The notes: generated from the sequence alone by a model not told the origin. DNA of 30,006 nt from an uncultured archaeon (GCA_964590575.1 CAZPWM010000025.1:7670-37675), one strand, 5' to 3'; numbered from the stretch's first letter, positions 2,159 to 16,117 are shown. Numbers and translations: made by a program.

Positions 2159-2376
2159 GCATGCGCGATTTTCTTATTAATCTCGGCCAGTTTTTTCTAT
2201 TTACATCAGGAATGAATAGATGATATCGGTCGCAGTAATTTCCAATGACGCTGAAAGGAACCAAGTATTGGATATGATGCAATATATCATCCCTCCTGTA
2301 TTGGGGAAGATTGAGCTCAGATCTATCTTCTCCATTATGGAAATTCACGTCTGATATTTCCGGAGACGAAAACGAA

Positions 2377-3543
2377 ATGCCCGAAGGTCTTGCTGTTCTA
2401 AAATGGGATGATGAGCTTGGACCAGTAGTTACTTCCAAAACACCAAAGAACCTCCAAATTGGATTAGACCCAACTACATCAATGAGGGTCTATGGAATAG
2501 CCACACTTGGTGAAACTGAGGAGTCTCAAAAACCTGGATTCAGCTCTTTAGCATTCAATGATTTCAAACTCGCTGTATATTATGGCGGACTCAATATGCA
2601 TTTGAAAGGTCTACCCTCAATGGTGTTCTTAGTACTCCAATCTGAGGAAGATCCTGATGTTTACAAGGATGCACTTCCAGAGATGGCAACTCAGATTTTT
2701 CTTAATGCAGAGGATGAAGAATACAAGAAGATGGTACCGCGGCTCTACAAACAAATCTCTCGATACACTCAGATGACTGCTGAGCAAAGGCAAGCATCTA
2801 TTCTCAACGATCCAGTGAGAAGAGCCATCATGCAGACGCTAATGAAGAATGGTACTGTCTTATCCACTGACCTTGAACAACTCATCTTTGAAGAAGTTGG
2901 TAAGAAGATTGATGTAGACATAGTCCTGAGACCCCTTGTCAAAATGGGCCTTATCGCTACAGGCTGGGTAGAGGGACTTTCTTCAGAGGTCATCTATCTG
3001 ACACGGGCACTCTTTATACTACGAACAATATCTCAAGATGCCATCAGATCAGTCAGAAAGGGCAAACTACCCACAGATGTTGCTGAAAGTTATCTTCAAA
3101 CATCTAGGAGATATCATCGTGACTATTTAGCTCGGTTGAGGAAAGACCTCTTCGAAACTATATGGACCGAGGCTGAAGAACTATCCAAGTATATGCTTGA
3201 CTTTGAGGCATATGACCTGATTCAAGTCCTAAGAGGTGGTCCACAAGATGCAGACCATCTTCCTGCATTGGTCGACCTCACAGCGGCTAAGCTCAGGAAA
3301 CAGCTTACAACGTTGGAGCAAGCGAATATTGTTACCAGAATCAATGATGAAGACGGGCGTCAATATGTGATTCTAAAATGTAATCCTGAGGTCATGACAG
3401 TTTATCCGGAATGGTTGATTCAAAGAACCGTTGACCTGTACAATGACGAAGAGATTGTCAGTCGACAAGCAATGCACTTTCTTGAGGTCTTAAAGAAGGC
3501 GCATCCAAGTCGCGCTTCTGGTGTTGCAATGGAGGTTAAATAA
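2377..3543 (+). CDS. Longin/uDENN-like N-terminal domain plus two winged-helix-like domains (Asgard-type hypothetical protein)
   Basis: ATG 2377 preceded by GGAGA; N-terminus GLAVLKWDDELGPVV resembles the uDENN/longin 'hhhxxFDxxxGP' start; two wHTH-like segments (RRAIMQTLMKNG...LRPLVKMGLI and LIQVLRGGP...LTTLEQANIV). Confidence 0.6.
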   Translation: MPEGLAVLKWDDELGPVVTSKTPKNLQIGLDPTTSMRVYGIATLGETEESQKPGFSSLAFNDFKLAVYYGGLNMHLKGLPSMVFLVLQSEEDPDVYKDALPEMATQIFLNAEDEEYKKMVPRLYKQISRYTQMTAEQRQASILNDPVRRAIMQTLMKNGTVLSTDLEQLIFEEVGKKIDVDIVLRPLVKMGLIATGWVEGLSSEVIYLTRALFILRTISQDAIRSVRKGKLPTDVAESYLQTSRRYHRDYLARLRKDLFETIWTEAEELSKYMLDFEAYDLIQVLRGGPQDADHLPALVDLTAAKLRKQLTTLEQANIVTRINDEDGRQYVILKCNPEVMTVYPEWLIQRTVDLYNDEEIVSRQAMHFLEVLKKAHPSRASGVAMEVK

Positions 3544-3544
3544 A

Positions 3545-6500
3545 ATGGATCAGAGATATCGACTCCTTCTACTAGTGGGATTCCTCACATTGTTCCTATT
3601 ACCTATAGGTAGTACCAGTCCCACCAAAATGACTACTGATACTCTCCTCACACTCAATGATGGTGCAATCACCTCCGGTTATCAGGATGAGGCTTCCTGG
3701 TGGAATTCCACCTTTATCTACCGACGATATTTCAACTTCACAGAACCAAATGTGAGTGACAGGACCAATGTCCCAATTCATGTCTACCTCACGTTCGATG
3801 AGCAACATTGTTATCGCGATTCCATTCGTGTTATGGAGTTTCAGGACCCGGGTTGGAGCGCTAAGGAATTTCAAGTCTGGAATATTACCTACTATTCTGG
3901 GAACGACTTCGTAAAATCAGCGCGGGTATCCTTCATGATAGATGTCAACCAAGACACTACTGAGGACTGCATTTACATTTACTACGCCAAACAGGATGTA
4001 GGAGTAGTGAGTTATCCAAGCTTCTATCCGTTCATCTACAAAAGCTATACTTTCTCATTGATTAACTTAGTTTCGTACTATGATGATAACAACTACTACC
4101 TCGAGATGTTTGATGATCCTCTCTACGGGGGCGATGGCACCTGGAAAGATCCAAACTTTGTGAATAATGGTGTGGACACTCGCTGGAAGAACTCGCAAGT
4201 GACACCAGACAGCACTCCAAGTGGTACACTTGACAAGTTTGACAATGTTCGGTATGAACCAACAACATCATCCTATAGCGACTTCTTTGGATACTACACT
4301 GTCTATTCTAATTATCCTCTTGCAGTGTCAATGGGTCATGGTGATAAGGGCTCCAATAATGCAATCAACGACTGGTTTCCTGGTGTTGATGAGTATGGTG
4401 AAGGTCTTGGAACTAAATTCATTCTTGGTGGTGTTGAAGGATTCGAAAGCTATAACGAAGGTAAGTACTGGGTACAAGCACATGAGGACAATACTCAGGT
4501 CTATGTATGGACTGCTGGAGATACTCTAGACTCTGGTTGGAGCTTCTATAATGGGACTTCTGTTTCCTTATGGCCAGCTGTCCTCAAGGCTGGAGAATAC
4601 ATCGCAAAACGAGATGTTGTCTATACAACCTACGTGATGGTAAACTCCACTAAACCCGTTTCAGTTCGAGCTGGTGACTCTGACGCAAGATACTCTCGTG
4701 ATATTGGAGGTTTCTTCACATCAGTTACGGGTGATCTTGTTGGCGAAGAGTTCTATACAATTGATATGGGTAACAGCAACGACAGAACTCGTATCACAAA
4801 CATTGGTGTTGCTCCGGTCACAGTCGAGTGGTGGAGAAACACAGGCTCTGGTTGGGTCAAAGGTGTAAATCTCACCAACATTCCCGTAAACAGCTCTGCT
4901 ACTATTTCACAAGGAACATCTAGTGCTTCAAATCCGGAAGATATTCTGAGAATTAGAGCACCTGCTGGTTCAAGGATTTTTGTTGAAGGAGTTTATAATC
5001 CTCCGAATGTCGTGGATTATGGTGATTGGAATCCAACAATGACTGGTAAACGGTTCGGTCTTGATTACAGAATCTGGGGAGGAAGAGGTCAGAAGATATT
5101 CGTCTTTGCATGGGAGAATGCAAAAATAGACATTTCAAGTTATAGTGGCACTTCTTCTCTGGAATTACCAGCTGGTGACGCGGGTTTCTACATGCCCGTG
5201 TCTGCAAGTCAGTCACTTCACGACCTACACTCAAATGCAACAATTAGTGTAGTCGTCTGTGGTTCATTTTCAACTTCAACACCCAATTATCCAAGTGGAG
5301 ACCAAGGATATGGATGGATGGTTCCATCTTATACTCCCGAGGGCGATGAAGCTGGTGTTATTATTTTTGCTAGCGACGAGGTCAAGCTCTTCGAATTTGA
5401 TGTCACTATTGTTGACCTTGATGGATTTCCAGTTGAGGGAGCATTTGTCGAGCTTCTAAATACCGATGATAGTCCCTGGCTAGATGACAATGGTCTTGGC
5501 AGATCTGGTTTGACCAATGTTGATGGACTAATAATCTTCGAGGGTCTCAGTAATCAAACCTTCAGAATTTCTACATCAATTGACGCGGCTACGTGGCTAA
5601 GCACATCATACTCGAATGTCTGGGTAAATGACACAAGCGATAATGGTGTAACAGATTCAGTTACCTACATTGAGATTACCCTCAGCATGGCGAACGTTGA
5701 TCTCTATTTCGAAGACTTGATGCATAATCCGATGGCAGACAATGACAATGAGGATACAACGGTCCGCTTAGTTGAAATGACTGGAGATCCTGCAGACTAT
5801 GTTGCTCAAGCACAGACCAATGCTACTGGAACAGCTCATTTCTATAGAGTACCAAGAAATAATTACGATGTATATGCTCGATATGCAGGTTCGCTAGGGT
5901 GGTCCTACGGATACGACGACATCTCTAACTTCGCAAGATGGTACATTGGCATAACAGAGTTCGACACAGGCAGTTTCAACCACAATTGGGACTTTCCACT
6001 AATTACTCTAGATATTCATGTTGTATCTTGGGATGTGCTTGATGTTGTTGGAGCTTCGATTAAGATAAACAACTCAGTTGACGAGAACGCATATCAAATT
6101 ACTAAGGCGAGTGATGTTTCAGGTGATTATACCTTCTATAGGATTGTTAACGGTACATGGAACCTTGATGTTTGGAAAGCTGATGATTACGCAAACACCC
6201 CTCTAGCTAGGAATTACACAGTTTCACTCAGTGACTTGCAGAGTTATACCTCTGAAATAATTCAACTTCCATTATCGCGCCTTGTTCTACGAGTTCAAAC
6301 TCCTGGATTGGCTAACGTTGAAGGAGCTCAAGTCAATGTCACTCTAAGAGGTGTGGGGTTGGTTGCGCAAGGTACAACAAACAGCACAGGTCATGTAACA
6401 TTTCTGAATATCCACGCAAATCTCTCATACCCATACTCTGTTTCGTACAACGTGACGGTCGTGAAGGGTACTGAACAGAATGGTACGTTCATTGAATTAC

Positions 6501-9500
6501 TTGTGAAATGTGACTTTGATTGGACGTATATCAACAGAATCACAATCACTGAACCCCTCTATAGTGCCGCATACACCGAGCTCAATTCCACTAAATACTT
6601 CATGAATGCTAAATGGGGTCAAAATGCCACCTTCTCTGTGGGTTGGTTCGACCGAACAGGACCCACAACATCTGTAATCACATTTGATTCAACATCATGG
6701 CTAAACTTCACCATCTATCTTGATGGTGCACCTATTGGTTGGGGTAGCTGGACCCAATCTGCTTCTACATGGATCGATGATCCTGTTGGAATATACTTCC
6801 TTGTAACCATCGACACTGATTTCTGGAACTTGGGTATCTCATCCACTGCGTATGTAATAGTAATTGAGGCTGATACCAGTCTGAAGGATGCTCCTGCACC
6901 TATAACTATCTACCTAACAGTTCAAGCAGCGTCAACTTCACAAGGCATCGGAACAGCTAACATTGTCGAATACTATGGCACGCAAGAAGAACATCTCTAT
7001 TGGCTCCACGATACTACAAATGGTTTGAATGTGTCCAATCTTGATGTTTATACTTACTCTGTCAAATATGGTACTCAAGTACTCAAAAGTGGTCTTCTCT
7101 CAAACAATGGCAATGGTACCTACAGTTTGCCAGTCGCAGCTCTAAGTGGTATCAATGTAGGAAACTACTTGGTGTACATTACTCTGCAAAAGGCTAACTA
7201 TATCAATCAGTCCTTCGCGATTGATGCTACACTCAATAACCTCCCATCAGTTGTGGTAATCACTCCAAATCCTGGTTACGAGTGGTCTTTGAGTGCAGAT
7301 GGTATTGTATTCCAATATCAGATTGCATGGAACTCCACTCCGACTGATTTAACCAGTGTCAGTGTAAAGATAGAGTGGGTAACATACCCTGGTGGTGTGT
7401 CGTATCTCAATGTCACTCGGATTCTGAGTGCCAGTGGTGGAGACCTGACGTATGATTTTTACCGCAATCTCGTCCCTGTAGGTAACTGGACAGTCCGAAT
7501 TACCTGCAGCCACGCTAACTATGGTATTGGTGTGGGAACTTTTAGCTTCCTAGATGTATCTGAGGCGACAACCAACCTGACTGTGATACCTCCTTCTGCT
7601 CTGACAGTTGATTGGACTGAACCCGCAATATTCTTTGTTGACTACTTCAGAGGTGGCACTGGACTTGTGGGTGCCCAGGTAACCACAGACTATCCCGGTA
7701 CCGTTGTTGTTAATTATCAAGGGAATGGTAGATATTCAATCGCATTTGATACCGCAATTCCCGCTGATGTCTATATCATCTCAGTAGGCTTCTCACTAGC
7801 TAATCATGAATCTCAAGAAGACACTGTAACAGTCACGATTAGAACTCCAATCACAATCGAAACAGACTTCGGATCTGAAGAAACTCCGTTAATTGCTTAT
7901 TGGACGCGAACCTTCGATATTGTCGTCAGATTGATGGATTCATCACGAGTTGACACAAACATTACTGGTGCAATGATTACCTATGATTGGGACCTACCGG
8001 TCTTCATTGCCTCAGGGAGTCTCACTGAGGTGCCCGGAATGCCTGGACTATATGGTATTACCCTTCTGGGAAGTCAAGCCAGTCCATTGATTAATGAGTA
8101 TCAAATCACACTTATTGCAACAAAAGGTACCTCATCAGCTACAGCAACTATTTTTCTAGTGATTCAGGATGTGCCTAATGAGATAATTCTCTCACACAAA
8201 CTCTTCAGAACTTACTTTGGAGACATCGCTACAGTCTGGTTCTATTGGAACAATACGCTTGACAATGCACCTATTATCCTTCCAAGCTCCGTCATTTTTC
8301 AGATCATACCGCTTGGTACAGGTATTAGTGGAGTTACCAACTATGGAAATGGCTCTTACAGTTTCGTTGTGGATACTCTATACCTTGGAATGAATGTTGA
8401 TGACTTTGATGGATTCTATCCAGTGTCAATCACAATGCTAGCTGATGGCTTTGCAACTGGTACTGAAGAGGTCTACTTCTTAATGAGCGAAAGTCCAACC
8501 AATTTGGACTTGGTTGGTCCTGTTGAAGCGGAATGGTCTGAGGATATGACTGTCAAAGTCAATCTACGTGACACATTACATGATGTGTTGGTATGGGATG
8601 GTGCTACTGTGGAACTTGTTTATGGTACCTATATCGTTCCTATGTTTTCATATGGAAACGGAACATTCTGGGTAACCTTTGATTCTGCAGCGTATTTCTC
8701 TGCAAGTGAAACTCCATACGATGTAACAGTTAGGTATTCCATTCCTAACTATGTTGATGGTGATATTGCGATTGAGGTTCAAGTTAACCCCGTTCTCTGT
8801 GAGATCCATATCATTACCGGTCATCTCCAAGATAATGTCTATAATGGTACATGGACTGATTCTGTGGAGGTCCAGTTCTGGGTGTTATATGCTGGAGAAG
8901 TAACCCATCCACCTGAAGGAATTGGAACCTACTCTTGGGTAGGTTATCCATCTGTAGGTGGTACTTTCAACTTCGCTAGTCTAATCTATACACTTTCAAT
9001 AGATACCACTGAGGTGCCTGCAGGTATAAGGACACTAAGATTGTTCATGACTCTTCAAAACCATACTGTGACACCATATGATATTACATTTGTATTGGAT
9101 CCTCTGACTGCTGATTTGGACACCGAAACAACAGACCTGGAAGTTGTATATGATTCCACTGACAGTATTTCACTCACTTTCGATTTGACCTATGGTGGAT
9201 CTCCATTGACTGGTGCAACAATCAGTTTTGAACTGGGAGGCATAACCTTCCAGCACTCTTCAACACCCGCACCTGGTCAGTATAATTTCGCTATCACACC
9301 TACCCTTGTTTCTGGTCTCATTGCTCCAGAAACTTACCTGTTGAACTTCACGGTGACTCTGCAGAACTACACAACCACCATGACACAGATACCTTTGATC
9401 TTGTTAGCGCCAACAACTCTGACATTTGATGATGAGATTACAATAGAGTATGGTAGTATAATCACCGTATACTTTGCATACTGGGACACGCTCAATAACC

Positions 9501-10591
9501 AAGCCGTTCCTGGTGGTGTCGTCACTGCTCAGCTACCCGATGGGTCGAATCTACCTGTTGAAGTTTACAATTCAACGCACTTTGCAGTGGTTATTACAGC
9601 CGCAGACGTGGGTGAGATTAGGACTGCTGCATACGAAATTGCATTCATTGCAAATGCGTCTCTGTATGAATCATACACCGGCGCAGATGTCTACCGGTTG
9701 ACCGTTTATGTCAGTGAACCAACATACAACTTTGGTCTACTCGGTAGGTATTCAAAGACTACAGTCAATACGATAATGCTAATGACGCTTCTATTTGGAA
9801 TAATGGTTAGTGGTGTCGTGGCAGTCAGACGCATGCGGATTCCATACCAAATTAAGCAGATTGACAAGGCATTGAACCAGATTGAGAAAGGTAAGACTGC
9901 TAAGGTCGAGAAGATCAAGACCATGGGCATGGTTGTGTCTGAATTACTGGCCCCCGGCCTTGCAGAACTTGACATTGCAGCTCCAGTCATCGAGGCTGGA
10001 CCTGACGATGTTGGTGAGGTTATCTTCGATGAGGATGCTGGTGAGCTACTTGATGAACTTGATGCCCTGGATGACCTAGGCGTTGAGGAAGAAGTTGATA
10101 CAGATGAGCCTGACTTTGAAGCTGAACTTGAAGCCGAGCTTGAAACTATTGAAGCTCCTGAAGTAGAGGATGAACCTCAAGCAGCTGAGGTCGAAGCTGA
10201 AGAACCTGAAGAGGAAGTACCTGAACCAGAACCCGAAGTAGTTGAGGAAGCGATTGAGGAAGCTGAAGCAGAAGAGTCTGAGCCTGAGGTTGAGCTCGAA
10301 GAAACAGAGCTGGACGAAATTGAGGAAGAGGCGGATCTCGAGGAAGCAATTCCTGAGTCAGGACCTGAAGATGTCGAGGTAGTTGAAGCACCACCTGAAG
10401 ACGCTCCTGAGGACTTAGAAGTCACTGAATCAGATGCTGAAGAGTCTATTACGAAGTTAAGCAAGAAAGAAATGATTGACCTTCTGCCTCCTGAAATCAA
10501 AGAACGCTATCCTATAGAAGAACTAAGGAAGCTCAGTAAGAAGGAGCTTCAGGAACTTCTCGACTACATGGATGCAGTTGATGAGGTATAA
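3545..10591 (+). CDS. Giant (~2348 aa) single-pass cell-surface glycoprotein: signal peptide, DUF2341-like and IgGFc-binding-like N-terminal region, beta-sandwich repeats, TM helix, acidic tail, C-terminal helical module
   Basis: RYR + hydrophobic signal; WWNSTFIYRR (DUF2341-like); AHEDNTQV/LKAGE/STKPVSV (IgGFc-binding-like); repeated 'VEGAxV...TNxxG' and 'GNGTY/GNGSY'; many N-x-S/T sequons; TM near 9765-9825 followed by RRMR; ~150-200 aa Glu-rich tail. Confidence 0.85.
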   Translation: MDQRYRLLLLVGFLTLFLLPIGSTSPTKMTTDTLLTLNDGAITSGYQDEASWWNSTFIYRRYFNFTEPNVSDRTNVPIHVYLTFDEQHCYRDSIRVMEFQDPGWSAKEFQVWNITYYSGNDFVKSARVSFMIDVNQDTTEDCIYIYYAKQDVGVVSYPSFYPFIYKSYTFSLINLVSYYDDNNYYLEMFDDPLYGGDGTWKDPNFVNNGVDTRWKNSQVTPDSTPSGTLDKFDNVRYEPTTSSYSDFFGYYTVYSNYPLAVSMGHGDKGSNNAINDWFPGVDEYGEGLGTKFILGGVEGFESYNEGKYWVQAHEDNTQVYVWTAGDTLDSGWSFYNGTSVSLWPAVLKAGEYIAKRDVVYTTYVMVNSTKPVSVRAGDSDARYSRDIGGFFTSVTGDLVGEEFYTIDMGNSNDRTRITNIGVAPVTVEWWRNTGSGWVKGVNLTNIPVNSSATISQGTSSASNPEDILRIRAPAGSRIFVEGVYNPPNVVDYGDWNPTMTGKRFGLDYRIWGGRGQKIFVFAWENAKIDISSYSGTSSLELPAGDAGFYMPVSASQSLHDLHSNATISVVVCGSFSTSTPNYPSGDQGYGWMVPSYTPEGDEAGVIIFASDEVKLFEFDVTIVDLDGFPVEGAFVELLNTDDSPWLDDNGLGRSGLTNVDGLIIFEGLSNQTFRISTSIDAATWLSTSYSNVWVNDTSDNGVTDSVTYIEITLSMANVDLYFEDLMHNPMADNDNEDTTVRLVEMTGDPADYVAQAQTNATGTAHFYRVPRNNYDVYARYAGSLGWSYGYDDISNFARWYIGITEFDTGSFNHNWDFPLITLDIHVVSWDVLDVVGASIKINNSVDENAYQITKASDVSGDYTFYRIVNGTWNLDVWKADDYANTPLARNYTVSLSDLQSYTSEIIQLPLSRLVLRVQTPGLANVEGAQVNVTLRGVGLVAQGTTNSTGHVTFLNIHANLSYPYSVSYNVTVVKGTEQNGTFIELLVKCDFDWTYINRITITEPLYSAAYTELNSTKYFMNAKWGQNATFSVGWFDRTGPTTSVITFDSTSWLNFTIYLDGAPIGWGSWTQSASTWIDDPVGIYFLVTIDTDFWNLGISSTAYVIVIEADTSLKDAPAPITIYLTVQAASTSQGIGTANIVEYYGTQEEHLYWLHDTTNGLNVSNLDVYTYSVKYGTQVLKSGLLSNNGNGTYSLPVAALSGINVGNYLVYITLQKANYINQSFAIDATLNNLPSVVVITPNPGYEWSLSADGIVFQYQIAWNSTPTDLTSVSVKIEWVTYPGGVSYLNVTRILSASGGDLTYDFYRNLVPVGNWTVRITCSHANYGIGVGTFSFLDVSEATTNLTVIPPSALTVDWTEPAIFFVDYFRGGTGLVGAQVTTDYPGTVVVNYQGNGRYSIAFDTAIPADVYIISVGFSLANHESQEDTVTVTIRTPITIETDFGSEETPLIAYWTRTFDIVVRLMDSSRVDTNITGAMITYDWDLPVFIASGSLTEVPGMPGLYGITLLGSQASPLINEYQITLIATKGTSSATATIFLVIQDVPNEIILSHKLFRTYFGDIATVWFYWNNTLDNAPIILPSSVIFQIIPLGTGISGVTNYGNGSYSFVVDTLYLGMNVDDFDGFYPVSITMLADGFATGTEEVYFLMSESPTNLDLVGPVEAEWSEDMTVKVNLRDTLHDVLVWDGATVELVYGTYIVPMFSYGNGTFWVTFDSAAYFSASETPYDVTVRYSIPNYVDGDIAIEVQVNPVLCEIHIITGHLQDNVYNGTWTDSVEVQFWVLYAGEVTHPPEGIGTYSWVGYPSVGGTFNFASLIYTLSIDTTEVPAGIRTLRLFMTLQNHTVTPYDITFVLDPLTADLDTETTDLEVVYDSTDSISLTFDLTYGGSPLTGATISFELGGITFQHSSTPAPGQYNFAITPTLVSGLIAPETYLLNFTVTLQNYTTTMTQIPLILLAPTTLTFDDEITIEYGSIITVYFAYWDTLNNQAVPGGVVTAQLPDGSNLPVEVYNSTHFAVVITAADVGEIRTAAYEIAFIANASLYESYTGADVYRLTVYVSEPTYNFGLLGRYSKTTVNTIMLMTLLFGIMVSGVVAVRRMRIPYQIKQIDKALNQIEKGKTAKVEKIKTMGMVVSELLAPGLAELDIAAPVIEAGPDDVGEVIFDEDAGELLDELDALDDLGVEEEVDTDEPDFEAELEAELETIEAPEVEDEPQAAEVEAEEPEEEVPEPEPEVVEEAIEEAEAEESEPEVELEETELDEIEEEADLEEAIPESGPEDVEVVEAPPEDAPEDLEVTESDAEESITKLSKKEMIDLLPPEIKERYPIEELRKLSKKELQELLDYMDAVDEV

Positions 10592-10596
10592 CCACC

Positions 10597-11481
10597 ATGA
10601 TACGAGAGATACACATCTTCAAAGATGGCCAGACACTATTTGAAGACGTCATAGTTCCTAACAAGGACCTCGACACATCAGCAGTGATGATGCTAGTTTC
10701 TTCTTCAGCTCAGAAACTCCAAGAGTGGAAGATTGACAGCATGGAGATTGAGCGTTATCGCTACGTCTACATGAACTCCCATAACACGCAATTCATTGTA
10801 ACAATGGACCGTCAAGCATCTCTTCAGAAAGTGATTGAGGCTATGATGGATCTTGTGTCCAAGTTCATGACTGTATTTGAGAGTACTCTTGAATCTAATG
10901 AATGGAAGTCAACTGATTTTTCACCGTTCGGTATAGGTTTCAGAAAGGTTGTTGGAAAGATTCCTGTGAAGATGTGTCTAGCAGGACATGGTGGTACTGG
11001 GAAAACTACTCTGCTCGAGCTGGCAACCCTTCCATCGCGAGGTCCACCTCAAGAGTATGTGCCCACGTTTTTTGGTGATAAAGCATTCCTCAAGGCTGAT
11101 TTCGACCCCTATATCTTCAGTATTTTCGATTTAGGAGGCCAAGATCGATTCGTGCAGGAGTGGGGGAAGATCATCCGATCCGGCAGTCTTGTAGTACTTG
11201 TTACTGACTCTACCAAGGAAAACCTAGCCTGGACAAAGCGTGTTGCATATCCAGTGTTAAGAGCTGAACTGCCATATGCAAGAGCAATAGCAATAGCAAA
11301 CAAACAAGACTTGCAAGGGGCGCTATCACCTGAAGAGGTCGGAAAGAAACTAGGTGTGCCAGCTTATGGAATGCAGGCAAACCAGCGAGATTTCAGAGAC
11401 CGATGGTTGAAACTACTGAGAGCAGTGGCCTTTGAAGAGGTTGACTTTACAATAGTCGGTGAGATTGTGGAGGTAGATTAG
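10597..11481 (+). CDS. Longin domain fused to an Arf/Rab-like small GTPase
   Basis: G1 GHGGTGKTT, G2 YVPT, G3 DLGGQDRF, G4 ANKQD; the N-terminal ~120 aa have the longin beta-beta-alpha-beta-beta-beta-alpha pattern (IREIHIFKDG...YRYVYM...FIVTMD...LVSKFMTVF). Confidence 0.85.
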   Translation: MIREIHIFKDGQTLFEDVIVPNKDLDTSAVMMLVSSSAQKLQEWKIDSMEIERYRYVYMNSHNTQFIVTMDRQASLQKVIEAMMDLVSKFMTVFESTLESNEWKSTDFSPFGIGFRKVVGKIPVKMCLAGHGGTGKTTLLELATLPSRGPPQEYVPTFFGDKAFLKADFDPYIFSIFDLGGQDRFVQEWGKIIRSGSLVVLVTDSTKENLAWTKRVAYPVLRAELPYARAIAIANKQDLQGALSPEEVGKKLGVPAYGMQANQRDFRDRWLKLLRAVAFEEVDFTIVGEIVEVD

Positions 11482-11482
11482 A

Positions 11483-12055
11483 ATGTCAGATCCAAGTAAT
11501 TTTACGAAAAGTGTCGTAACTGAAGAAGAACGAAAACGTTTGATTGGTGAGATTGGACGCATAAAGGAAACTCTTGACAGCTTCAAGTACGGTTTAAACT
11601 TCGAAGAATTCGCTGACGAGCTGTTCAAAACAGTTGACAGACAAACATTAGCCATAAAGAAACTCGATGAGAAGATGACCGATATTGTCGAGAGAATGGA
11701 ACGACTGGAACGACGCTTCAATGAAGGTATCAAAGTTGCAGTATCCGGAGCTGTTGGTTCGGATTCTAGGCAAGTCAGTGAAAGCGGTGACGTGATTCTG
11801 GATGAACTTTCGACCAAGAAGGATGTACCAGTAGCTGAACCCGTGCGGGATGAAAACCATGAAACCCTTGAAAAAGAAATTGGAGATTTGAAAATCAAGA
11901 TAGGCCGACTCTTTGAGAAAGAAAATGAGCTTGAAGAGATGACTATGAATGACCCTGCTGGTGCCAAAGAGTACGAGGAAAAGGCAGGTACTGCGCGAGA
12001 AATGAGGAGAGGCCTTGAAGAAAAGCTGAAAGAGCTGGAAGGCAAACTCCGGTAA
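11483..12055 (+). CDS. Coiled-coil hypothetical protein (two helical blocks separated by a linker)
   Basis: E/K/L-rich heptads at both ends; starts 1 nt after the GTPase stop. Confidence 0.7.
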   Translation: MSDPSNFTKSVVTEEERKRLIGEIGRIKETLDSFKYGLNFEEFADELFKTVDRQTLAIKKLDEKMTDIVERMERLERRFNEGIKVAVSGAVGSDSRQVSESGDVILDELSTKKDVPVAEPVRDENHETLEKEIGDLKIKIGRLFEKENELEEMTMNDPAGAKEYEEKAGTAREMRRGLEEKLKELEGKLR

Positions 12056-12067
12056 AGGTGAGTAGGA

Positions 12068-12424
12068 ATGGGTTTATTCGACAGATGGAGACGAAAGAAA
12101 ACGCCTGCACCACAACCTGTGGCAAGGCTTCACGAAACTACTAAAATTAAATCTGCAGCATCAGTTGAGGCTCCGGACATCGAGAGCGGACCTGAAACGA
12201 TTACATCTCTTCTTGGGAAGTACGAGGGTTTAGTTCAACGTCGTGAAGAGCTTAAAGTAGAACGAGAGGACCTCACACGAAAACTAGAGGATGGAAAACT
12301 TGAGGCAGCTGAGTTCAGAAAGGAACTCATGGCTAGGATTCAGGAAGCCGCACAGGTTTCAGAGAATCTGAGGGAAACCACAGTGAAACTCACTCAGGTT
12401 GGTTATCGCGGAACTCTAAGCTAA
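12068..12424 (+). CDS. Small protein with N-terminal basic amphipathic motif and C-terminal helical hairpin
   Basis: AGGTGA RBS at 12056-12061; MGLFDRWRRKK; hairpin ...KLEDGKLEAAEFRKEL... Confidence 0.7.
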   Translation: MGLFDRWRRKKTPAPQPVARLHETTKIKSAASVEAPDIESGPETITSLLGKYEGLVQRREELKVEREDLTRKLEDGKLEAAEFRKELMARIQEAAQVSENLRETTVKLTQVGYRGTLS

Positions 12425-12435
12425 GGTGAATATTC

Positions 12436-13857
12436 GTGTCGGACCGAAACAATCCTGAGAACACAGGTTCTGAACAGTCCGACTTGGAGAGAGAAACCCA
12501 ACGGTTGATGGATGAAGCCATGGGCGCGCGAGCGTCTGCAGAATCAGTAGCGCCTGAAGAAAAACAAACTGAACAAATAGATGTGACCTTCCAGAGGCTT
12601 CAAACACGAATGGAGGATCTTCTATCTACAATCGAGGATGCTTTAAGCTCAGTGGGACCTGATTTAGATTCTAAGACCGCACAAATCTATGCATCATTAA
12701 GTAAAAAGCTAGCTAATGCAGGTTTAGGTGTGTTTGCAACAGGAGCTGCAAAGTTAGTCAAGGACGAACTCGAATCTGAACTCTCTGTCGAGGCTGTTTT
12801 CGCACCAGTCCGTGAAGCAATTGAGAAGAGCAAAGCAACTATTGCTGATGTGATTGAAAAGACTGGGAAGGGTGCAGTCCGTAATATTGGGCAAGCATCT
12901 GGAAATGTTCAGGCAAAATTACTGCAAATGTACGCTAAACTCAGCGAGATGGACAAGCAATTAGAAACAGCTCGTGGTGAAGTTCGTAAATGGCGAGGAA
13001 AATCCAACGAGCTTGAGGAACGAATGCGCCACCGAGAGGATCTGATGTCACAGTCAAGTGAGGAAATGGTTCGGATGCACGATAGCATCAAGGACCTCAA
13101 TGCACAATTGCAGGAAAGAGATGATGTAGTTTCTCAACTGAAAGGTGAGTTAGGGCAAGCACAGTCGCAAGCTGAGCAGCAAAAAGAGCTGTTGAAGGCA
13201 CTAGACTCAGCAGAGCAGGTGGCAACTGATTATGAATCTAAAGTGCTCGAGCTGTCACAATTACAAGGCCAGCTCGCACAAGTAAACGAGCAACTCGGAC
13301 AAAAGGAAGCAGAACTATTGGTACTTCGGTCTGACCTAGAACAGCTAAAGCAAGAGAAAATTACTGCTGACTCTCAAATAATCGAGATGTCTGACAAACT
13401 TGCATCGTTGACCGGTTCTGAGAGAGACTATCAGGCGGAAGTTGATGAGATGAATGCCAAAGTGGCTGAATTACAGGCTCGTTGGGACACGCTCTATAGG
13501 GTTGCGGAGGATGACCCGACTTTCAAAGCATACTTCCTTGTTGCAGACAAGACTCAGTGGTTCCAACTACCACATCTCTCTTCTGCCCTAGGAATACCCA
13601 CTGTATTACTCAAAAGGAATTTACAGAAATTCGTTGAAGCAGGTCTTTTGGAGATCGAAGGAGACCGTGTCCGACCTCGCAGTCTGTCTGACTTGGTTTC
13701 GGATGTTGAATCCTCTGAGGAAACTTTACTTGAAAATGCTCGTGCAGAGTCTGATGGTAGTGCAACTGAATCCCTTGACCCCTCAGATTTGATCATGCCA
13801 ACACCTGAATATACAGGTCCTGAGAAGGGTGATGATTACGAACAGGAAGGAAGATAG
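12436..13857 (+). CDS. Long coiled-coil protein with C-terminal winged-helix and acidic tail
   Basis: GTG start with AGGTGA at 12424-12429; ~200 aa continuous heptads; LPHLSSALGIPTVLLKRNLQKFVEAGLLEIEGDRV is wHTH-like; no Walker motifs. Confidence 0.75.
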   Translation: MSDRNNPENTGSEQSDLERETQRLMDEAMGARASAESVAPEEKQTEQIDVTFQRLQTRMEDLLSTIEDALSSVGPDLDSKTAQIYASLSKKLANAGLGVFATGAAKLVKDELESELSVEAVFAPVREAIEKSKATIADVIEKTGKGAVRNIGQASGNVQAKLLQMYAKLSEMDKQLETARGEVRKWRGKSNELEERMRHREDLMSQSSEEMVRMHDSIKDLNAQLQERDDVVSQLKGELGQAQSQAEQQKELLKALDSAEQVATDYESKVLELSQLQGQLAQVNEQLGQKEAELLVLRSDLEQLKQEKITADSQIIEMSDKLASLTGSERDYQAEVDEMNAKVAELQARWDTLYRVAEDDPTFKAYFLVADKTQWFQLPHLSSALGIPTVLLKRNLQKFVEAGLLEIEGDRVRPRSLSDLVSDVESSEETLLENARAESDGSATESLDPSDLIMPTPEYTGPEKGDDYEQEGR

Positions 13858-14200
13858 ATTGGTTAGGACACTAGAAGAAGTCATGCGTTTTCTTGAGAAC
13901 TATACACTTGCCTGGCATCATTGGTTGATGCTCTTGTCACTTCTCAAACTTGGTGGAAGTGGCACAAAATCTCAGATTCTCCCAGTCTATAAGAAAGAGG
14001 GCTTCTCTCCACATGCAATTGATAAAGTATTCCAGACCGATTTGGAAGACCTAGGCGAAGCTGTTGAGGTGGAAGACGGTATTAGTAATCTTACCGAACG
14101 TTCAACAATCTACCTCACAGAGAATCTGAAATTTAGGAAATTTTTGAAGAAGCACCTCAAATCTGTCGTGAGCACATTCAAGACTCGCAGTCGAGCTTGA
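13832..14200 (+). CDS. Hypothetical protein, probable winged-helix fold
   Basis: Overlaps the previous gene by 26 nt (ATG 13832, or GTG 13829); LLSLLKLGGSGTKSQI...IYLTE pattern resembles a wHTH. Confidence 0.65.
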   Translation: MITNRKEDRLVRTLEEVMRFLENYTLAWHHWLMLLSLLKLGGSGTKSQILPVYKKEGFSPHAIDKVFQTDLEDLGEAVEVEDGISNLTERSTIYLTENLKFRKFLKKHLKSVVSTFKTRSRA

Positions 14201-14223
14201 TTGAACTATGGTTGGTGGTATGA

Positions 14224-14463
14224 ATGAAGGACCCACCCGACTCTCCACTGGATTCGGAAGATTCTATTGTTGAATCAAATAGTCAACAATCAGAGGATTC
14301 TTGTGAGCAAGATTTTCCTGAGAGCCTATCGAAACTCACGAAACGAGAATTATTAGATCTCATTCCCGCTGAGATTAAAGAGAGCACCTCTCTATCTGAT
14401 TTGAAACGATTATCAAAACAAGAATTACTTGCTCTTGTTGAAACTATTTTGGTCCAGGAATAG
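14224..14463 (+). CDS. 79 aa acidic protein carrying a copy of the giant surface protein's C-terminal module
   Basis: GGTGG RBS; LSKLTKRELLDLIPAEIKESTSLSDLKRLSKQELLALV aligns without gaps to the end of 3545..10591. Confidence 0.7.
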   Translation: MKDPPDSPLDSEDSIVESNSQQSEDSCEQDFPESLSKLTKRELLDLIPAEIKESTSLSDLKRLSKQELLALVETILVQE

Positions 14464-14549
14464 TTACAGAAGACATACCGAACCGTATCTCATTCTGATT
14501 CAGACACTCACGAAACCTTAACATGAAGTGATAGTGAGATTGGAATATC

Positions 14550-14882
14550 ATGTTAGGGAAGTCAATAACCAGCTCAAAGTGTAGCCTTTGTGATAGAGTG
14601 ATAGTCCCTCCAAGAGAGACCTGTCCATATTGTGGAAAGAGTGCAGGTCCTATGGAAATAGTGGCGTTATCTAATCGAGGAGTTGTTCAAAGTTACACTA
14701 CTCTTCAGATGCCCCCAGAAGGTTTTGAGGCTCCTTTGTCATTGGCACTTGTAGAACTCGAAAAAGGAGCATTGATCTTGTGCTTAGCCAATGAGCAATT
14801 TTGGTCCCCGCTAAATATCGGAGATCAAGTCGAGATACAAGTTGACTCTAAAGATAGATTCTGTTATCGGACCATTAGATGA
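14550..14882 (+). CDS. Zn-ribbon/OB-fold protein (DUF35, thiolase partner)
   Basis: KCSLC...PPRETCPYCG zinc ribbon; GVVQSYTT...PPEGFEAP...ALVEL...IGDQV OB-fold. Confidence 0.85.
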   Translation: MLGKSITSSKCSLCDRVIVPPRETCPYCGKSAGPMEIVALSNRGVVQSYTTLQMPPEGFEAPLSLALVELEKGALILCLANEQFWSPLNIGDQVEIQVDSKDRFCYRTIR

Positions 14883-14947
14883 TATTAGAGTGCACGGGCA
14901 GCTATGGATTTAAGCAAGTTCTCTACTACCCCTCATAGGTTTGAACG

Positions 14948-16117
14948 ATGGTTAACTATCTTTCTAATGTTCTTTGGACTGATGATGAAATAACCTTTAG
15001 ACAAAAGGTACAGGAGTTTTGTGCGAAGGAGATTGCACCTGTTGCGGATGAAATAGACAAAGGTCCTTATCCCCGTGAGCTCCTAAGAAAAATCGGAAAA
15101 GCTGGTTACATGGGTGTTCACCATGACAAATCTGTTGGCGGGACCGAATGTGGTCTCTCCTATGAGATCATAGTTGCTGAAGAGATTTCCGCTGTTAATG
15201 GCGGTCTCGATATGGCTAGGATGGCATCAACTACCCTTTATGGCATGCCTGTCGCTCGATTTGGTACTAATGAACAGAAGAAGAAGTACCTAGAACCAGT
15301 TGTGGCTGGCGACAAGATTGGGTGTATCGGGATAACAGAACCTGATGTGGGGAGTGATACAGCTGGAATGAAGACGCAGGCTGTGAAAGATGGGGACGAC
15401 TGGATTCTCAACGGTGAGAAGAGATTCATCACCAATGGGAGTCAAGCTGACTTCATGTGCGCATTTGCTATTACAGAACCCGCGGTCAAATCTAAGGAGG
15501 GAATGTCTGCATTCATCATTGATACAACTATGGATGGATTTAGCGTTATTCAGGACCACGACCTTCTTGGAATGAAATCAGCACGAGTTTCATGGTTAAA
15601 GTTTGAGGATCTCCGTGTGCCTGGAGATATGCTCCTTGGAAAGCCTGGGGCAGGGTTCCACATCCTTATGGATGAGCTCGACTCAGAGAGAACAGCAATT
15701 GCAGGCGAGGCAATTGGTTATGCAAGAACTCCCTACGAGATCGCAGTCAAGTACGCAACCGAACGTCATCAGTTTGGTAGGCCTATCCGTGCATTTGAGG
15801 GAGTGAGTTTCAAAATCGCTGACATGGCCATGAAACTAGAGGCTGGTCGTGCACTCACACTCACTGCAGCACGAATGTATGATCGTGGTGAAAATATTAC
15901 CAAAGAAGCTTCTATTGCCAAGCTATATACAACCGAGGCTGCTGTCCAAATCACAAATGATGCCCTGCAGATACTTGGTGGCATGGGTTATACAACAGAC
16001 TATCCAATCGAGCGCTTCCTAAGAGACGCTCGTTTAATGACAATTGGTGGAGGGACTGCAGAAATTCTCCGTTTCTTAATCCAGCGAGAGGTCTTCAAAG
16101 AATTCTTTCCTGGCTGA
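14948..16117 (+). CDS. Acyl-CoA dehydrogenase
   Basis: ITEPDVGSD, LNGEKRFITNG, RHQFGRPI, QILGGMGY, IGGGTAEI motifs. Confidence 0.95.
   Translation: MVNYLSNVLWTDDEITFRQKVQEFCAKEIAPVADEIDKGPYPRELLRKIGKAGYMGVHHDKSVGGTECGLSYEIIVAEEISAVNGGLDMARMASTTLYGMPVARFGTNEQKKKYLEPVVAGDKIGCIGITEPDVGSDTAGMKTQAVKDGDDWILNGEKRFITNGSQADFMCAFAITEPAVKSKEGMSAFIIDTTMDGFSVIQDHDLLGMKSARVSWLKFEDLRVPGDMLLGKPGAGFHILMDELDSERTAIAGEAIGYARTPYEIAVKYATERHQFGRPIRAFEGVSFKIADMAMKLEAGRALTLTAARMYDRGENITKEASIAKLYTTEAAVQITNDALQILGGMGYTTDYPIERFLRDARLMTIGGGTAEILRFLIQREVFKEFFPG

Follow-up and report, generated by a model that had tools for sequence, protein, structure and literature searches.

The search for early stages of eukaryotic cell organisation has turned to the Asgard archaea, in which fusions of roadblock or longin domains with GTPases have been described (Tran et al. 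2024, PMC10933270). As in the fusions presented in the passages of that paper considered here, the GTPase of the operon considered here has an N-terminal extension before its Arf-like G domain. However, these passages do not mention giant membrane proteins, the operon or a tail module, and the words 'transmembrane' and 'gene cluster' occur in them 0 times. The giant surface proteins of Asgard archaea and their cytoplasmic ends are essentially undescribed. Here, we analysed one strand, 5' to 3', of a 30,006-nt stretch of DNA from an uncultured archaeon (GCA_964590575.1 CAZPWM010000025.1:7670-37675), which we call the window. It holds an operon with a giant surface protein gene, giant1, and a 79-residue stand-alone open reading frame (ORF), mini79, at the operon's end. 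The subject of this work is the module of about 45 residues which both of these proteins have at their C-termini, and the origin of its stand-alone copy. All features of the window given below lie on the plus strand.

MicroProteins and truncated decoys, such as the Id proteins and plant LITTLE ZIPPER, are single-domain proteins that can titrate the partner of a relative. Like them, mini79 is short, with one putative interaction domain that goes back to a larger protein of several domains, but its parent is a membrane giant and not a transcription factor. With regard to the domain itself, the best-fitting named small domain is Rho_N (PDB 1a62), which is, like the module, small, all-helical and of similar size. 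Rho_N forms the N-terminus of an RNA helicase and has an OB-fold partner next to it, whereas the module is C-terminal on membrane giants and has no OB-fold. SAP and SAP-like domains (PIAS1, Tho1, MANF/CDNF, SLX4) share with the module a length of 35-45 residues and helices combined with an extended turn, and the L-[ST]-K-x-E-L helix start resembles the SAP consensus. They differ from the module in having two helices instead of the four short ones in its model, and the charge of the module is near neutral. Finally, the LEM/HeH proteins of the inner nuclear membrane (emerin, MAN1, Heh1/Heh2, Src1) also have a small helical domain on the non-extracytoplasmic side of a membrane protein. In eukaryotes this domain lies at the N-terminus, with BAF or DNA as its ligand. 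The module, in contrast, is found at the C-terminus of giant surface proteins, where a polyacidic tether precedes it, and no sequence relation to the LEM/HeH proteins was found.

Probable origin and maintenance of mini79

The ORF of mini79 (14224..14463) starts with an ATG that directly follows an in-frame TGA (14221-14223) and lies 23 nt behind the gene of the small protein p123. A Shine-Dalgarno-like GGTGGT (14214..14219) precedes the start codon by 4 nt; at the remaining genes of the operon, GGAGGT or GGTGA is found at a similar spacing. The first 34 residues (14224..14325), homologous by alignment to the end of the linker of a second giant protein, giantC, are acidic and rich in serine (11 Asp or Glu, 8 Ser, 1 Lys). 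They are predicted to be disordered, with no secondary structure and a predicted local distance difference test score (pLDDT) of about 50 in AlphaFold2 (AF2). The module itself (14326..14460) comprises 45 residues, for which AF2 predicts four short helices (pLDDT 87). No signal peptide, transmembrane helix or other domain was found in the translation, by Pfam or in the AF2 model, and mini79 consists only of a putative interaction domain and an acidic stretch from a larger protein.

With a slight lean in its favour, we read mini79 as the orphaned 3' end of the giantC gene, which would yield a translated and maintained soluble copy of the tail domain, acting as a competitor or buffer. In BLASTP, the C-terminal ~85 residues of giantC match residues 5-74 of mini79, a range that includes the acidic N-terminus. 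The module of mini79 is 53-64% identical to giantC tails, compared with 40% to the module of giant1 in the window (33-40% to those of giant1 orthologs). The majority residues of the mini module match giantC in 26/44 columns and each of the other module-bearing giant groups (A, which includes giant1, B and D) in 17. Among the diagnostic columns, 12 match only giantC and 3 only giant1. Two stand-alone relatives of mini79 are known from metagenomes (see below), and in a maximum-likelihood tree the three mini-proteins form one clade (support 99/98) inside the giantC clade (96/100).

The surroundings of the ORF point in the same direction. In 11 genomes of the genus, the orthologs of the two genes that follow mini79, encoding a DUF35 protein and an acyl-CoA dehydrogenase (acd), are immediately preceded by a giantC-type tail. 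In three genus genomes giantC alone, with 3357-4048 residues, occupies the place between the thiolase gene and DUF35; p123 was not found in these three genomes, nor in two others. The closest relative by GTPase identity (92%) has p123 followed by a giantC start that runs off the contig, and a giantC tail ahead of DUF35 on another contig. Of 37 Thorarchaeota GTPase loci, 30 have DUF35 as the next gene after p123, with a gap of no more than 159 nt between open frames in which no module was matched (the remaining 7/37 end early or are too divergent); in the window this gap is 349 nt and contains mini79. In one genome p123 abuts DUF35 with nothing between them. The 43 nt of intergenic DNA immediately upstream of the DUF35 gene (14507..14549) align in blastn with the giantC-DUF35 spacers of giantC-bearing genomes and do not align with this last genome. 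These arrangements suggest that giantC in sister species has its place upstream of DUF35 and acd and downstream of either the operon or the thiolase gene. In the lineage of the window, the body of giantC would have gone from the locus, leaving its last ~79 codons with an ATG and a Shine-Dalgarno-like site of their own.

The likeness between the two copies in the window, on which the first-pass annotation was built, is real. The translations of 10448-10561 and 14326-14439 share 18/38 residues without gaps, as had been counted by hand, and this number was reached by none of 200,000 shuffles of one peptide (0/200,000). The whole 79-residue ORF aligns with the last 230 residues of giant1 at 22/49 identities and 37/49 positives, again ungapped (BLASTP, E 5e-12), and a hidden Markov model of three sequences finds both copies at E ~1e-23. 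The module of giant1 (10448..10588), of the group A type, ends 1 residue before the stop codon; both copies end 0-1 residues before it, after an acidic low-complexity stretch of 207 residues in giant1 and 34 in mini79. The acidic linker had been noticed correctly for both: the composition of each is rich in Asp and Glu, and the N-terminus of mini79 is modelled as disordered. The internal L-[ST]-K-x-E repeat is also present, twice in each copy; in the AF2 model one occurrence marks the start of helix 1 and the other that of helix 4, and both may be helix N-capping boxes.

We next consider whether the ORF is maintained. Two stand-alone relatives, of 79 and 78 residues, occur in metagenome protein collections from other assemblies; both have the same aligned Met start, and one shares its first eight residues closely with mini79. 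Among the three stand-alone proteins 29/45 columns are invariant in the module, compared with 5/34 in the N-terminus, and most of the differences within the module read in the alignment as conservative (I/V, S/T, D/E). Between mini79 and eight giantC tails the proportion of synonymous differences (pS) is 0.75-0.98, that is saturated, while that of nonsynonymous differences (pN) is 0.24-0.32; against the giant1 module the values are 1.00 and 0.39. The pN/pS ratio of the mini79 module against the giantC tail of the closest relative (genome G005) is 0.29, similar to those of the neighbouring genes cc118 (0.31) and DUF35 (0.29). The earlier inference that the DNA has diverged under selection at the protein level is in line with these figures. 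Since two metagenome proteins keep the start and the conserved module despite a diverged N-terminus, the ORF looks maintained, and its columns and substitutions are better accounted for by a translated domain under constraint than by a scar in decay.

Several observations weigh against this account of mini79. The approximately unbiased (AU) test does not reject a grouping of the mini-proteins with the giant1-type modules (log-likelihood difference 1.15, p 0.447); because of this result, and with 46 columns available, the tree alone cannot fix the origin and the argument is carried by synteny. The pS of the module against the giantC tail of G005 (0.92) exceeds that of the flanking orthologs (0.61-0.70), so that the split between mini79 and giantC may predate the split of the species. 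Such an older split may point to a partial duplication or exchange over a simple deletion in situ. No deletion junction was found at the DNA level: when 14188-14330 is set against the closest relative's p123-giantC spacer and the beginning of its giantC gene, the alignment is weak and gapped. Both mini79 and giantC start with ATG AAG, which may be chance. The bin of the window itself keeps giantC-like bodies on contigs C179, C160 and C106, with 3' ends unassembled. Each of these contigs is a single frame open from end to end (1140, 1607 and 3494 residues), C179 is 76% identical to the giantC of another species, and all three are parts of a giant repetitive gene, or of several, with unassembled ends. 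Because these bodies remain in the bin, giantC is absent from the locus but not necessarily from the genome, and a strain-level deletion variant at the locus is possible. The first-pass annotation took absence from close relatives as the sign of a decayed duplication. The stand-alone form was indeed not found in 27/27 other genomes of the genus, nor in 300 other genomes of the phylum, but the two metagenome proteins do exist. Each of these two, however, is known as a protein alone, from one short ENA contig (805 and 548 nt). No sequencing run recorded as RNA matches window positions 13700-14950, and the signs of expression are indirect, namely the Shine-Dalgarno-like site and the conserved frame. 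A search with the alignment of the three mini-proteins gave 144 pattern matches in JGI metagenome contigs and 123 in GTDB genome contigs, 0 of which were confirmed in either set. Two further short frames with the module, of 244 residues (G254) and 259 residues (G154), were set aside as giants cut by an N run or a contig end.

The source of mini79 proposed by the first-pass annotation was the neighbouring giant1, whose module would have been duplicated and kept as a dedicated soluble partner or decoy. The two genes share operon and strand, their homology is clear, and the AU test does not reject the grouping. Nevertheless, mini79 is closer to the giantC tails in both identity and diagnostic columns, and its position and downstream spacer match the giantC loci, with the giantC 3' end in this place in 11 sister genomes. 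In addition, none of eight orthologous operons with a module-bearing giant1 has a mini ORF (0/8 loci), nor does that of G023, and many giant1 orthologs have no module at all. We consider a duplicate of giant1 very improbable. Since mini79 most likely comes from the tail of another giant, there is a doubtful basis for modelling it as a regulator devoted to the neighbouring receptor. An error of assembly or binning, or a minority strain variant, with a full giantC at this locus in the true genome, has an even slimmer chance. The giantC-like bodies without 3' ends on three end-to-end open contigs of the bin would suit it, as would the fact that two Logan contigs of sequencing run X2 both stop at 14128/14132. 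The junction is nevertheless seen independently: a Logan contig of run X2, from another sample, covers 14132-15200 with 1 difference and reaches from the final 69 nt of p123 through the spacer, mini79 and DUF35 into acd. A 2022 study contributes Logan contigs for 13972-14177 and 14332-14624, and 3 contigs of the protein collection encode exactly the mini79 protein. The DNA in the 5' part of the ORF is not of low complexity, and two other assemblies give proteins with the same start. Among the read-alignment rows listed, there are no differences inside 14193-14506, and runs X8 and X10 have no cover over the mini ORF. An assembly chimera at the junction of p123 and mini79 is unlikely.

A more serious contender, although still an unlikely one, is that mini79 is an unselected leftover, the scar of a recent deletion that is open by chance, is not made or has no function, and will decay. 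The absence from the other genomes of the genus and phylum would fit such a scar, as would the lack of a matching RNA run and the single short contigs of the metagenome relatives. The genome in which p123 abuts DUF35 adds to this, because it indicates that the locus works without mini79. A scar, however, is hardly expected in three diverged stand-alone proteins that keep start, length (79, 79 and 78 residues) and an intact frame. The concentration of invariant columns in the module, the low pN beside saturated pS and the Shine-Dalgarno-like site at a spacing typical of the operon also speak against it. We keep to the orphaned giantC tail as the preferred reading of mini79.

Distribution and predicted fold of the tail module

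As judged from its sequence, the module is a previously undescribed end-domain of ~45 residues with four predicted short helices, nearly confined to one family of Thorarchaeota. It matched no Pfam or NCBIfam family and had no significant sequence match in the PDB. The best PDB profile match was region 4 of sigma-E at E 0.031, which we read as likeness at the level of a motif. The best score in the ESM Atlas, 0.78, is under a level that shuffled sequences also reach. Matches to the Pfam family S_100, obtained for 21/33 members, were ascribed to a short helix-start motif of Leu, Ser, Lys and Glu, which we presume the S100 proteins to share, and not to homology. A full-text literature search found no paper on the module, on the tails of Thorarchaeota giant proteins, or on SAP/LEM-like domains on Asgard membrane proteins.

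A profile was built from 33 distinct modules read from loci of the genome of the window and of its genus. Against 1.84 billion representative proteins it gave 53 matches at E<=1e-3, of which 20 reached E<=1e-10. The 28 of these 53 that were inspected are C-termini of proteins of 1,000-3,700 residues, short tail fragments, or HEAT-repeat proteins of 380-530 residues with 2-4 copies of the module. Among 301 genomes of the phylum, the profile matched 72/76 of the window's family, 1/1 of a sister family and 1/223 of the remainder (the last at E 4.8e-4). Within the genus, four families of giants bear the module: A (giant1 and its orthologs), B (in the genome of the window, a 2514-residue frame on contig C35), C (giantC) and D. 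The module is not specific to the operon: no fewer than four giant families and a HEAT-repeat protein carry it. In the 33 modules the end lies 0-10 residues before the stop codon, except for the proximal copy of a tandem pair and the HEAT protein. Residues L4, K6, E8, P14, L26, L29, K31 and L37 are near-invariant and basic residues are conserved at K6, K/R18, K/R28 and K31, while the net charge of the core is near zero (median +1, range -3 to +3).

Some giants have more than one copy. The giantC proteins of three species (L013, L021, L051; genomes G001, G017, G041) end in two tandem modules ~70 residues apart, and the proximal ones form a clade of their own (98/100). Other giants (L109-L111; G008, G015, G024) have a three-module tail of divergent variants with acidic linkers, in which the final module is of the type found in the last position among the modules of the HEAT protein.

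The AF2 model of the module, made from the alignment, has a pLDDT of 87.3, a predicted template-modelling score (pTM) of 0.58 and helices at residues 6-12, 15-20, 23-27 and 31-44; the full-length model of mini79 shows the same four helices, with a pLDDT of 80-88 in the module. The first-pass annotation had guessed a SAP/LEM/Rho-N-like domain and named a Foldseek comparison as the way to check it. Foldseek against the PDB returned no match at E<=0.001, and re-examination of its 23 chains left only CheA P4, with a Z-score of 3.0. A comparison by VIA-align with 48,161 representatives listed 50 entries, all of them scoring below the caution line (Z<8). A segment of TAF1 was among them (Z 5.1). The Rho N-terminal domain had Z 4.6, with a root-mean-square deviation of 1.6 Å over 39 of 45 residues and 20% identity. 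SAP-like domains of CDNF/MANF (Z 3.8 and 3.3), the SAP domain of SLX4 (Z 3.5), the LEM domain of emerin (Z 3.4 and 3.1) and five other SAP domains (Z 3.0-3.2) were also listed. Judged by entry titles, Rho-N, SAP, SAP-like and LEM domains make up 11 of the 50 entries listed, at Z 3.0-4.6, with SAP and SAP-like domains accounting for 8 (Z 3.0-3.8).

In the Pfam search, weak matches among the 33 members were to FANC_SAP (5), Rho_N (3), SAP (2) and YqbF_HeH (2). None of the SAP/HeH class reached its gathering score: the best E for SAP (PF02037) was 0.016, and FANC_SAP gave the window's copy 14.5 bits against a cut-off of 23. For Rho_N (PF07498), which is not among the families matched by the window's copy, the best E was 0.0054 (3/33 members), also short of the gathering score. 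The 79-residue ORF as a whole had no Pfam match of the SAP/HeH class. What stands of the earlier guess is a real, conserved small helical domain, with which a Rho-N/SAP/LEM-like fold is weakly compatible in the AF2 model; the fold itself is not established.

If this fold were taken at face value, the module could be a SAP/HeH-type nucleic-acid binder. DNA or RNA would then be anchored at the membrane by the giants, and mini79 would be a small soluble DNA-binding protein instead of a decoy that docks to proteins. We find this doubtful. The share of such domains among the structure entries and the weak Pfam matches speak for it, together with the conserved basic residues, the poly-lysine linkers of the HEAT protein and an HhH_5 DNA-binding domain in 2/8 HEAT-bearing representatives. 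They are offset by Z-scores that all stay under 8, by the empty Foldseek result and by Pfam scores that stay below every cut-off. Moreover, the core is close to neutral, and the strongly acidic tether of the giants should repel nucleic acid.

Possible roles of the tail copies

The module forms the extreme, putatively cytoplasmic C-terminus of single-pass (or few-pass) giants, held on a polyacidic disordered tether of 100-250 residues, and it may dock to a cytoplasmic ligand that the tails have in common. Under the preferred reading of mini79 as an orphaned giantC tail, the last gene of the operon would be translated into a soluble copy of the tail domain. This copy would meet the same ligand as the membrane-tethered tails and could compete with them or act as a buffer. 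The ligand may be another module, the HEAT/poly-lysine protein, whose charge is opposite to that of the tethers, or nucleic acid.

The HEAT-module protein is found once in each of 28/28 genomes of the genus, at 61-82% identity, and this conserved, cytoplasmic HEAT/poly-lysine protein repeats the module 3-4 times. In the genome of the window (C18:33445-34584; L106:7446-8585) it has three module copies with poly-lysine linkers. The giant gene on C35 and the HEAT-module gene each have a gene for a VWA-domain protein beside them (L105:9131-10021; L106:8593-9966), convergent to its neighbour, which may be a coincidence; no common candidate partner beyond these was found among the neighbours of the two genes.

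A more far-reaching proposal, which we regard as a long shot, joins these elements into one system. The module would be a HeH/SAP/LEM-like binder of nucleic acid or chromatin, the giants would couple the envelope to the nucleoid through an acidic spring, directly or via the HEAT/poly-lysine/HhH protein, and mini79 would be a soluble regulator. If true, this would be a prokaryotic counterpart of the eukaryotic LEM/HeH tethers of the inner nuclear membrane, in the archaeal group nearest to eukaryotes, and a protein of 79 residues would release or buffer the coupling of envelope and nucleoid.

For the present, the annotation of the module and of mini79 is well supported, and the result is a modest but real one: a mini-protein apparently born by truncation and carrying a new, family-restricted small domain. 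One domain of 45 residues, common to several giants and to a universally conserved HEAT protein, offers a handle on what the cytoplasmic tails hold. A giant gene reduced to a conserved protein of 79 residues would in effect be a natural experiment which isolates that domain. Should the module bind DNA, a cytoskeletal protein or an adaptor protein, the finding would gain much weight.

giant1 and the layout of the locus

giant1 (3521..10591) is predicted from its ORF and translation, weak Pfam matches and orthologs to be a type-I surface protein of 2356 residues. It has a hydrophobic leader resembling a signal peptide, a very long ectodomain, one transmembrane helix, an acidic linker and the module. 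The ectodomain has Ig-like and CarboxypepD_reg-like repeats, with weak Pfam matches to Ig_DR_A0283-like and CarboxypepD_reg, and orthologs in two genomes of the genus are 51-54% identical. The single predicted transmembrane helix is a hydrophobic stretch at residues 2084-2102 (9770..9826). Because basic residues come after this helix, the tail should be cytoplasmic by the positive-inside rule. The linker of 207 residues (9827..10447) contains 39% Asp and Glu; in its last 163 residues this share is 47%, with zero Lys or Arg. The listed GTG start of giant1 (3521) overlaps the end of the upstream gene p410, whose stop codon lies at 3543, and the ATG at 3545, which opens the hydrophobic leader, is the more plausible start.

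The module is an optional part of giant1. The 21 giant1 orthologs upstream of the GTPase variously end in the module, in a bare acidic tail or in another helical end. In two of these orthologs (L100, L103) the C-terminus is a different, unrelated-looking helical module, and in ten others it is a bare acidic tail.

Downstream of giant1 the operon continues with an Arf-family small GTPase (10597-11481), assigned by Pfam and by PDB matches to Arf proteins, whose N-terminal extension has ~120 residues. It is followed, in operon order, by the coiled-coil proteins cc190 (11483-12055), cc118 (12068-12424) and cc473 (12436-13857; DUF7491 by Pfam), and by p123 (13829-14200). This gene order is conserved in 37 Thorarchaeota loci. 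Beyond mini79 lie the genes for a DUF35/ChsH2-like protein with zinc ribbon and OB fold (14550-14882) and for the acyl-CoA dehydrogenase (14948-16117), both assigned by Pfam and orthologs. The flanks are syntenic across the family, with a biotinyl-domain protein and thiolase upstream and the DUF35/ChsH2-like protein and acyl-CoA dehydrogenase downstream. Between the thiolase and its usual DUF35 neighbour, more than 30 genomes carry a Thorarchaeota gene island (window 2311-14200, loci L068-L104). It contains p410 (weak winged helix-turn-helix matches), the N-extended Arf-like GTPase, cc118 and p123. A giant surface protein, cc190 and cc473 are additionally present in a long form, and in the short form, seen in 13 loci, p410 abuts the GTPase.

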